Below are positions 1 to 1,672 of a DNA stretch of 1,672 nucleotides, one piece after another. Made by a program: the position numbers and the translations under genes. The stretch lies in NCBI RefSeq assembly GCF_003334355.1, contig NZ_QOWP01000082.1; one strand, written 5' to 3'. Below the pieces are notes generated by a model. The model had not been told where the DNA came from, did no database searches, and saw nothing but the letters and a program-made list of their open reading frames with translations. Within the stretch, counting starts at the first letter, position 1. Every line of letters starts with the position of its first letter. This stretch comes from Escherichia coli (GTDB lineage: Bacteria; Pseudomonadota; Gammaproteobacteria; Enterobacterales; Enterobacteriaceae).

Positions 1-54
1 TTGTCTGTAATCGGGGATAATAGAAATATGTTCCATCAATTTTTTAAGTTCCAT
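1..54 (-). CDS. ISAs1-family transposase (H-repeat-associated protein, ORF-H), N-terminal 18 codons only; CDS continues beyond the left edge (5' end in window, 3' partial).
   Basis: Minus strand reads TAAGGAGAACAAA ATG GAA CTT AAA AAA TTG ATG GAA CAT ATT TCT ATT ATC CCC GAT TAC AGA CAA = MELKKLMEHISIIPDYRQ. This matches the N-terminus of E. coli H-repeat / ISAs1-type transposases (YhhI/YdcC/YbfD-like) as I remember them. Consensus SD AAGGAG sits 6 nt upstream. H-repeats are classically found next to Rhs elements. Too short to appear in the ORF track. Confidence 0.65.
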   Translation of the reverse strand, partial: MELKKLMEHISIIPDYRQ

Positions 55-60
55 TTTGTT

Positions 61-66
61 CTCCTT
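61..66 (-). promoter_or_regulatory. Shine-Dalgarno (AAGGAG) of the ISAs1/H-repeat transposase gene
   Basis: Plus-strand CTCCTT at 61..66 is AAGGAG on the minus strand; 6-nt spacer (AACAAA) to the ATG at 54..52. Confidence 0.55.
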
Positions 67-161
67 AATTATGTAAGAAGTATTTGATCATGTATAAGCA
101 ATAAAAAACAGCTTCAGGTAATAAGGAATATCTCAATTTTTAAACATAAAATGCGAATTAT

Positions 162-545
162 TTAGTGCAAAAAGTGAACTTTTGATGATCTTTCCCTGGC
201 CGTTGACTTGATTGCCGTAGCTCGAACGCAAGCACTCTTATCATTCAATGCCATATTGTTCAAAATATTAAAAACATTATCTTCGCATTTTTTGCAAATT
301 TATATTTGCCCGAGTATAAATGCTCCGATATCTCTACGGATATAATTTTTGTCAGTGCAGAATTCAATTGCCAATCTAACAGCGTCTTGCCCCCCTCTTA
401 ACTGTAATACTCTGGCAGATGAAATCCTTTTCAAGGAATTGCGATCATCAAGTAAGCGAAATAATTCATCATCATTTAGTTTCTTACATTTATTATATAA
501 ACCATACTCTTTACTTGCCTTTCTTTTCTGGTATGTATTTGACAT
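162..545 (-). pseudogene. yibA: yibA-like HEAT-repeat protein gene (Rhs-associated, putative orphan immunity gene), disrupted. The intact ORF 545->300 encodes only the N-terminal 81 aa; an in-frame TAA at 302..300 is followed by 45 more in-frame codons to a second stop at 164..162.
   Basis: Translation MSNTYQKRKASKEYGLYNKCKKLNDDELFRLLDDRNSLKRISSARVLQLRGGQDAVRLAIEFCTDKNYIRRDIGAFILGQI* matches the N-terminus of E. coli YibA (about 280 aa, HEAT-repeat protein) as I remember it. After the TAA the same frame reads ICKKCEDNVFNILNNMALNDKSACVRATAI..., which continues the remembered YibA sequence (a Lys codon there in K-12), so the stop looks like a nonsense substitution. Strong SD GGAGG at 558..554, 8 nt upstream of ATG 545..543. 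The track ORF 300..560 starts at an ATG that overlaps the SD and is less likely the true start. Confidence 0.75.
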
Positions 546-553
546 TGCAGGAA

Positions 554-558
554 CCTCC
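554..558 (-). promoter_or_regulatory. Shine-Dalgarno (GGAGG) of the yibA-like ORF
   Basis: Plus-strand CCTCC at 554..558 is GGAGG on the minus strand; 8-nt spacer (TTCCTGCA) to the ATG at 545..543. Confidence 0.6.
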
Positions 559-649
559 ATAAAGGCTATCTTTTTCTATCGTTTGACTGTCTGGAGTCCT
601 CCACCTACTCTGCCATCAGCGCACACGATGTTTGATTATCCTTACATAC

Positions 650-1033
650 TTATTTTCCGTGGCCAAAATTCAGAATTCTCCCATCATTTTTGCCTATTTC
701 TATAATAAAAACCCCACCAGCAATTTGGTCTGAGTGAATGGTACCTTCAACAACCCAACTTGTTGTTAACTCAGTGATTTCGTATGGTTTTTCTTCTTCT
801 GCGGCATCCTGTCCATAACGATTCTTAACATATATCTCAGCTAATTCCAATGCTATAGCTTTATTTTTAACCAAATTTCTAACGGTATATTTACCTTCAC
901 TTTCATACTTGCGCATTATTTTAATATTATTATTACACTGCGCCCATGTGTTGTATGTAAAAACAAACAAAGATACAATGACACAGTTCCTAAACAATAT
1001 TTTTTTACATATTACCATGAACTCTGCAGACAT
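650..1033 (-). CDS. Putative Rhs immunity protein (RhsI-like), 127 aa, with predicted N-terminal Sec signal peptide. Alternative start at ATG 1018..1016.
   Basis: Six-frame ORF immediately downstream of the rhs CT, overlapping its last codons by 29 nt (1005..1033), which is the typical rhs/rhsI arrangement. AAAGGA Shine-Dalgarno at 1046..1041, 7 nt upstream of the ATG. N-terminus [31 protein letters not shown]|QC has a basic n-region, an 11-residue hydrophobic core and a T-W-A cleavage-like site. The mature part contains ...[19 protein letters not shown]...[16 protein letters not shown]..., which resembles small immunity-type proteins but is not assigned to a family. Confidence 0.7.
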
Positions 1034-1672
1034 TAGGTAATCCTTTTCTGTTTGTTATTTCCTTCCCGTGGTTATCTATTGCTTTAAAATTACCACTGGG
1101 CGTACCTAAATAAAATGACTTGATATTGTTATCTTTACTTTTAACTATTTTCTCATCTTTACCTGAAAATATTTCGTCCCAATATTCTCCATGACTATCT
1201 GCACCATGAGTATGATAAGCTGATACTTTCTCAGTACCATTAGGGCAAGGGCTATTGAATGGATATGATCCTTTTCTTTCTCCTCGGTTAGGTGCTGTTG
1301 AGAAATATCTGCCACTATTATCCTTACATATTAAACCAGCGAACTCTTTATCTTCGCAAATAGATTGGCTATTTATTTTATTTAAGGCGTCATATGCGGT
1401 GCTATCTATAGAATCAAATTTATCTGGACCTATCATAGCGGATAGTGTGCCGCAAAGACCATTAGTACATGCCCCCGATTTTGCATCCTCCCACATAGAT
1501 AAACCCAGGGGGTCGATGTCTGATATCGGATTCAATTGATATCCATACAGGTTCCATCCCCCCTTCAGCCCAATCGGATCCTGAGTGATATATCGCCCCT
1601 GCAGCGGGTCATAATAGCGGTGGCGGTTGTAATACAGGCCGGACTCCTCATCATACTGCTGCCCCGGCAGGC
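1005..1672 (-). CDS. Rhs-family polymorphic toxin, C-terminal portion (3' partial; CDS continues beyond the right edge). Conserved core end is followed by a 164-aa variable C-terminal toxin domain of unrecognised family.
   Basis: Minus-strand frame is open from 1670 to the TAA at 1007..1005. It translates to [57 protein letters not shown], then [18 protein letters not shown]...NVCRVHGNM*. The YDPxxGRYxxxDPIGLxGGxNxYxY...PxxxxDPxGL pattern is the Rhs repeat-associated core end that demarcates the variable CT (DPLGL = 1514..1500). The ORF track starts this ORF at 1535 only because it reads a TTG Leu codon as a start; the frame is open upstream. GC is about 59% in 1561..1672 versus about 33% in 1021..1140 (counted by hand). 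Confidence 0.9.
1041..1046 (-). promoter_or_regulatory. Shine-Dalgarno (AAAGGA) for the putative immunity gene, embedded in the 3' end of the rhs coding sequence
   Basis: Plus-strand TCCTTT at 1041..1046 is AAAGGA on the minus strand, 7 nt upstream of the ATG at 1033..1031. Confidence 0.5.

Follow-up and report, generated by a model that had tools for sequence, protein, structure and literature searches.

The question raised by this stretch of Escherichia coli DNA is what ended the yibA-like reading frame that it carries, and whether the insertion sequence (IS) lying beside that frame was the cause. The window, by which we mean the whole stretch analysed, matches complete E. coli chromosomes over all of its 1,672 bp at 99.8% identity, at the RhsB locus. 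MG1655 is 99.76% identical to positions 1 to 1670, with differences solely at 72, 78, 209, 1569, and 1671, and has the gene order rhsB (b3482), yhhH (b3483), the pseudogene yrhC (b4552), yhhI (b3484), and yhhJ. The match in strain EC-129 comprises four minus-strand features, namely the 3' end of rhsB, yhhH, a HEAT-repeat pseudogene, and the 5' end of yhhI, in an island between nikR and yhhJ. Judged by these matches, the window represents the classical RhsB element at its distal end, the whole locus reading nikR / rhsB-yhhH-yibA'-ISEc1 / yhhJ. The nikR-yhhJ position was seen in all full-length matches inspected (EC-129 and MG1655); the window ends short of the flanking backbone, and we infer the same placement for the window itself. 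Its features, from the rhsB side to the IS, are the following:

1005..1672, minus strand: 3' end of rhsB, comprising the end of the conserved core (DPLGL motif) and the variable C-terminal tip
650..1033, minus strand: yhhH, a small ORF of 127 aa after the RhsB C-terminal tip
546..597, minus strand: yibA upstream sequence common to the K-12 RhsA locus, made up of a 20-bp spacer and the 3'-terminal 32 bp of the rhsA ORF
199..545, minus strand: yibA-derived pseudogene (yrhC, b4552 in MG1655), codons 1 to 116 of 280
198..199: IS/yibA junction, G198 being the last IS base and G199 being yibA nt 347, position 2 of codon 116
1..198, minus strand: transposase-proximal end of ISEc1 (H-rptB), the window stopping inside the IS
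181..198: terminal inverted repeat of ISEc1, reverse complement CAGGGAAAGATCATCAAA, distal end CAGGGCAAGATTACGAAA, 14 of 18 positions identical
162..164, minus strand: TAA at which the dead yibA frame stops once it has crossed 34 nt of IS tip (165-198)
61..66, minus strand: SD-like AAGGAG (reverse complement of these positions), 6 nt 5' of the ATG, read from the sequence
1..54, minus strand: first 18 codons of the yhhI transposase gene, translation MELKKLMEHISIIPDYRQ

The rhsB part was matched by NF041261 and TIGR03696 in residues 1-57 of the translation that runs down from 1670. The start of yhhH and the end of the rhsB ORF overlap by 29 bp (1005-1033). A search of the whole window against Rfam gave no match at E <= 1, and window 1-700 contained two promoter-like sites, against 2.9 expected, and no terminators. 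One promoter-like site, at 96..68, was set aside as unconvincing, its transcription start falling inside the SD sequence.

We then consider the IS itself. Positions 1-54 are identical in DNA to yhhI of locus L001, with no differences below position 72, and yhhI is annotated in EC-129 as 'ISAs1-like element ISEc1 family transposase' on the strand common to rhsB, yhhH, and the HEAT-repeat pseudogene. Full-length YhhI of the reference locus scored 417.7 bits against the NCBIfam model NF033564 'ISAs1 family transposase' (cut-off 70) and contains the Pfam domains DDE_Tnp_1_assoc (PF13808; residues 8-94) and DDE_Tnp_1 (PF01609; residues 102-343). A preliminary description of this DNA had read a transposase start at 54..1 with the SD sequence AAGGAG, had assigned it to an ISAs1/H-repeat element on the rhs strand inside an Rhs locus, and had looked to the left flank for an ISAs1-type transposase. 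The translation MELKKLMEHISIIPDYRQ and the AAGGAG at 61-66 bear out the first point, the annotation and the NF033564 match the second, and full-length YhhI of the reference locus the third. We take the IS copy in the window to be the H-repeat 'H-rptB' in the naming of the Hill laboratory, the PGAP product name giving ISEc1, and we presume that the length and ends given for ISEc1 by ISfinder are those of this element.

Where this element ends became apparent from its other copies. A search with window 1-320 returned two classes of matches, full length at the RhsB locus and limited to 1 to 197-205 elsewhere; the latter are ISEc1 copies at ybfD, ydcC, an ICE, and the yafV site, with 93-98.5% identity. 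The window/RhsB copy and six fetched copies were aligned, giving seven proximal and six distal ends. The seven proximal ends, from copies in different contexts, agree through …GATCTTTCCCTG and then share no similarity, which places the proximal IS terminus at window 198 (…GATGATCTTTCCCTG). The tip CCCTG is kept in six of the seven copies, and an A replaces the final G in the other. Distal similarity begins with CAGGG(C/A)AAGATTACGAAAGCC, at L001 position 2908, and past both ends the flanks are unrelated between contexts. The element is 1291 bp long in five contexts (L001, L004, L006, L007, and K-12), while the copy in L003 measures 1289 bp and that in L008 1292 bp, all within the 1.2-1.5 kb of the family.

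Elements of the ISAs1 family have imperfect terminal inverted repeats beginning CAGGG (ISfinder/TnPedia), and their target-site duplications measure 8-10 bp. The terminal inverted repeats of ISEc1 are likewise imperfect and start CAGGG(A/C)AAGAT...; they had been missed when the sequence was inspected by eye, but they are present, with 14 of 18 positions identical. They are also missing from the list of our repeat scan, because mismatches interrupt them. The top inverted repeat of that scan (L001 2903-2923 / 2990-3010) was rejected as chance or subterminal, and it includes flank bases that are not conserved elsewhere. A scripted comparison of 4-12 bp of flank in six ISEc1 copies gave best matches at chance level. 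Since none of these six copies has one, the missing duplication says nothing specific about the copy in the window. The absence of duplications fits old or rearranged ISEc1 copies, and membership in the ISAs1 family stands.

Two of the fetched loci are worth describing separately. At L008:877-930, the distal ISEc1 end occurs twice, 31 bp apart (CAGGGCAAGATTACGAAAGCC … CAGGGAAAGATTACGAAAGCC). At L007:908-2198, a solo ISEc1 lies between yddH and ansP with no adjoining RhsE, while the same IS position in L004 borders an Rhs element. Because of this pair, we conclude that ISEc1 can occur without Rhs DNA.

On the other side of the junction, window 199-597 aligned with K-12 yibA and its upstream sequence over 399 bp without gaps and with 97.0% identity. 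The homology comprises 52 bp upstream of the gene and yibA nt 1-347 of 843. In the tblastn comparison, 111 of 117 residues are identical to those of K-12 YibA, and a stop replaces K82; this is the in-frame TAA at window 300-302, codon 82 of the remnant. The NF007244 profile was matched at positions 1-81 of 285 with 108.9 bits, against a cut-off of 275. The yibA remnant is a derived pseudogene fragment and not a functional member of NF007244 (HEAT-repeat 'putative lyase'). PGAP describes it, at window 195-545, as 'HEAT repeat domain-containing protein; internal stop; missing C-terminus'. The C-terminal region of RhsA inhibits growth, and yibA is reported to neutralise this effect (PMC3150448). 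The remnant, being homologous to yibA, therefore derives from an immunity gene of the RhsA type. Homology to the K-12 RhsA locus ends at 597, and the stretch that corresponds to the 32 terminal bp of rhsA (tip a1) resembles a tip-replacement scar.

The two sequences meet directly: the IS side reads …TTTCCCTG and the yibA side GCCGTTGAC…, with zero intervening bases. This base-exact junction agrees with the preliminary description, which had an IS abutting a decayed yibA remnant and expected the boundary between about 55 and about 210. The gap of about 110 bp given there does hold as the distance from the end of the yibA-like frame to the transposase, but it is no spacer, all of it being IS DNA; the 5' untranslated end of the IS measures 144 bp (55-198). 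Uninterrupted yibA similarity up to the transposase start, which would have spoken against an IS boundary, was not found, and the similarity stops 144 bp short of it. Some BLAST matches reach 193 or 196, as if there were microhomology at the junction. Such an extension needs a 1-nt gap (yibA CTGAGCCG versus window CTGGCCG), and we discarded it as likely due to chance. With this mapping, both the ISEc1 tip and the yibA breakpoint are located to the base, where annotation pipelines give approximate positions: the PGAP pseudogene call overshoots 4 nt into the IS.

The dead yibA frame runs on into the IS, and the ORF 162..263 ends ...ATAIKSTARERSSKVHFLH. In L005 (CDS 2162-2746) and L008 (CDS 2163-2456), annotated Rhs-fragment ORFs also enter the ISEc1 end. 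These ORFs appear to end at the equivalent of window 162-164.

An uninterrupted counterpart of this arrangement exists at the RhsA locus. In strains such as RM7190 and FDAARGOS_403, the interval yibF…yibH contains an rhs gene that shares the C-terminal (b1) tip of the window, followed by yhhH, a complete 843-bp yibA, and orphan rhs fragments. Window 199-1670 aligned without gaps to these RhsA-locus variants, with 99.1-99.3% identity. Comparison with an uninterrupted yibA locus had been put forward earlier as the way to map the insertion point, and the RhsA-locus variant indeed places the breakpoint at window 199. In the corresponding intervals, L009:6512-12049 and L010:6509-12046, an RhsB-type tip and yhhH sit at the RhsA locus directly 5' of the complete yibA. 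PGAP calls the rhs gene of L009 and L010 'rhsB' despite its location between yibF and yibH.

How old is the junction? A junction-spanning query (window 1-650) was found with >=80% coverage and >=99% identity in about 1812 complete genomes, among them K-12 derivatives, ATCC 8739, and O26/O103/O111 strains. A junction so widely shared is old and fixed. The picture of a locus that is still being rearranged, drawn in the preliminary description, is not borne out by this junction, which these genomes have in common, K-12 included. Ongoing change at the locus is due to agents other than ISEc1, namely IS1 and alternative cargos at nikR-yhhJ. A scan of species-representative genomes with a junction 25-mer recovered one mis-binned MAG scaffold and was uninformative on the age of the junction.

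Several observations concern this variation and the scaffold. In several strains, the match falls into two pieces spread over about 2449 bp instead of 1672 (~777 bp added), and an IS1 transposase is annotated; these split matches are independent IS1 insertions in the rhsB/yhhH/yibA' region. We inspected nikR-yhhJ intervals at L011:546-555, L012:9247-15154, and L013:3378-9203. Depending on the strain, the site was empty (8-bp intergenic) or held hicAB, a PTS/fuculokinase island, or RhsB. A different Rhs with IS1 and an ISAs1 fragment was another content. The 67 bp that separate a REP-like sequence (3' of yhhJ) from the distal IS end in L001 (2841-2907) are present in the RhsB-type loci L001, L013, and L014. 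L012, with the PTS island, lacks this stretch, and its similarity ends 87 bp past the yhhJ stop. The MAG scaffold L015 (QFQM01000622.1), binned as 'Flavobacterium psychrophilum', corresponds over positions 1-1561 to window 88-1648 at 99.87% and is evidently mis-binned E. coli RhsB DNA. Its ends lie in the IS and in the rhs core, as expected of assembly breaks at repeats.

We now return to the origin of the truncation. ISEc1 was probably involved. The very next base after its intact tip is yibA, and this is what implicates the transposase. The other flank of the IS (L001 2754-2907, 154 bp) matches yhhJ-side DNA only. Moreover, the reciprocal junction, searched for with a chimeric query (yibA nt 336-650 plus the distal IS end), is absent from the 5426 complete genomes of E. 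coli, none of which has a place that covers >=80% of the query. Because of the yhhJ-side flank, the missing duplication, and the missing reciprocal junction, an extra deletion or recombination step is needed. The earlier proposal that the IS caused the truncation is therefore plausible in view of an intact tip joined exactly at yibA nt 347, but not in the form of a simple insertion.

Our favored explanation, which we regard as likely, is that an RhsA-like source was cut by a transposase-made joint in an old event that has since become fixed, with ISEc1 at the distal border of RhsB. An RhsA-like arrangement (rhs-yhhH-yibA-…) would have been cut at yibA codon 116 by a joint that the transposase catalysed at the IS tip, and the remainder of yibA, together with whatever lay beyond it, would have been lost either at that moment or afterwards. 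This loss could have come about by an adjacent deletion mediated by the IS or through recombination of two H-repeats in the same orientation; L006 and L008 do contain adjacent ISAs1 copies. ISEc1 would thereby have been left as the final component ahead of the yhhJ backbone, and the remnant would later have gained its nonsense codon and several substitutions. Transposition at this exact yibA site is not directly documented, the duplication and the reciprocal junction both being absent.

Alternatively, an unrelated deletion, or an illegitimate recombination event during the building of RhsB, might have truncated yibA, the IS having independently arrived at, or already occupied, this point. In favor of this reading, there is neither a target duplication nor a reciprocal product, and transposition activity of H-rpt elements has reportedly never been observed (PMC3032704). 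In addition, nikR-yhhJ serves as an integration hotspot in general, and several other cargos can occupy it. However, no conserved base is missing from the IS terminus, and yibA homology begins immediately behind it; in other Rhs islands, too, co-oriented ORFs are cut off by the ISEc1 end. Since an unrelated breakage would seldom keep an intact tip, we consider a coincidental abutment unlikely.

Another possibility is that the H-repeat was the vehicle. An H-repeat inserted in an RhsA-like yibA would then have carried or captured rhs-yhhH-yibA', from the rhs ATG to yibA nt 347, and brought it to nikR-yhhJ, and the IS end would both have truncated yibA and mark the edge of the transferred unit. 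Indeed, RhsB and RhsA-type loci are homologous from the start codon of rhs as far as window 199, the homology ending at the IS. In all six Rhs-linked ISEc1 copies fetched (L001, L003, L004, L005, L008, and L013), the IS shares the orientation of rhs and no further island component separates it from the backbone, and empty as well as otherwise filled nikR-yhhJ sites exist. Against such a transfer, the nikR-side border shows neither an IS end nor an inverted repeat by eye, the duplication is missing, and H-repeats are without known activity (PMC3032704). The rhs cores are moreover mosaic, and gene conversion would equally explain the common homology. Both the transfer itself and the double role that it would assign to the IS end seem to us quite improbable. 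Finally, a simple insertion of ISEc1 into an intact yibA, with both halves still flanking it, would account for the exact joint between the IS tip and yibA, but it is refuted for this locus, as the DNA on the far side comes from the yhhJ side and bears no resemblance to yibA, the target duplication is absent, and the 3' part of yibA lies beside the distal IS end in 0 of 5426 genomes.

The favored origin, a transposase-made joint followed by loss of the rest of yibA, concerns how the remnant arose; a separate issue is what the remnant may do in exchanges between Rhs loci. When the window was compared with L009/L010, 9 of 11 differences fell in 199-491, inside the yibA remnant, and 2 of 11 in 492-1670, the 1.2 kb with yhhH and the rhs tip (Fisher p = 1.7e-5). 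Further upstream in the rhs core, differences from the RhsA-locus variant are patchy again. This suggests a recent exchange of a tip/yhhH tract between the two loci, with one endpoint in the 5' region of yibA. We tentatively propose that the b1-tip/yhhH toxin-immunity cassette might be exchanged between RhsB-type and RhsA-type loci by homologous recombination in which the rhs core provides the upstream homology arm and the yibA remnant the downstream one, although we hold this to be rather less than probable. The proposal fits because the differences are so unevenly distributed and because b1-yhhH lies directly 5' of an intact yibA at the RhsA locus. It extends the known recombination of Rhs elements and the displacement of their C termini (PMC2935791). 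If true, cassette exchange would be a modest addition to the C-terminal displacement model (PMC2935791).

Overall, the region illustrates how IS ends can delimit Rhs islands, with fragments of immunity genes left over, and it matters mainly for annotation. The ISEc1/yibA arrangement is already annotated in E. coli K-12 and other reference genomes and is an ordinary feature of these. In the MG1655 RhsB element, the gene order rhsB-yhhH-yrhC-yhhI-yhhJ is the same as in the window, which has just the first 198 bp of the IS. Similarly, the ISEc1/H-rptB of K-12 RhsB is a 1291-bp element with CAGGG ends, and its NF033564 transposase is also present in MG1655. K-12 yibA (dsORF-a1 of the RhsA element) shares 97% nucleotide identity with the remnant and its upstream sequence, but the K-12 gene is complete. 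Their surroundings differ as well: yibA of RhsA comes directly after rhsA, whereas the remnant follows yhhH. Finally, the variant of RM7190 and FDAARGOS_403, rhs(b1 tip)-yhhH-yibA-yibJ-yibG, has no ISEc1 and, unlike the RhsB element, is located between yibF and yibH rather than at nikR-yhhJ.
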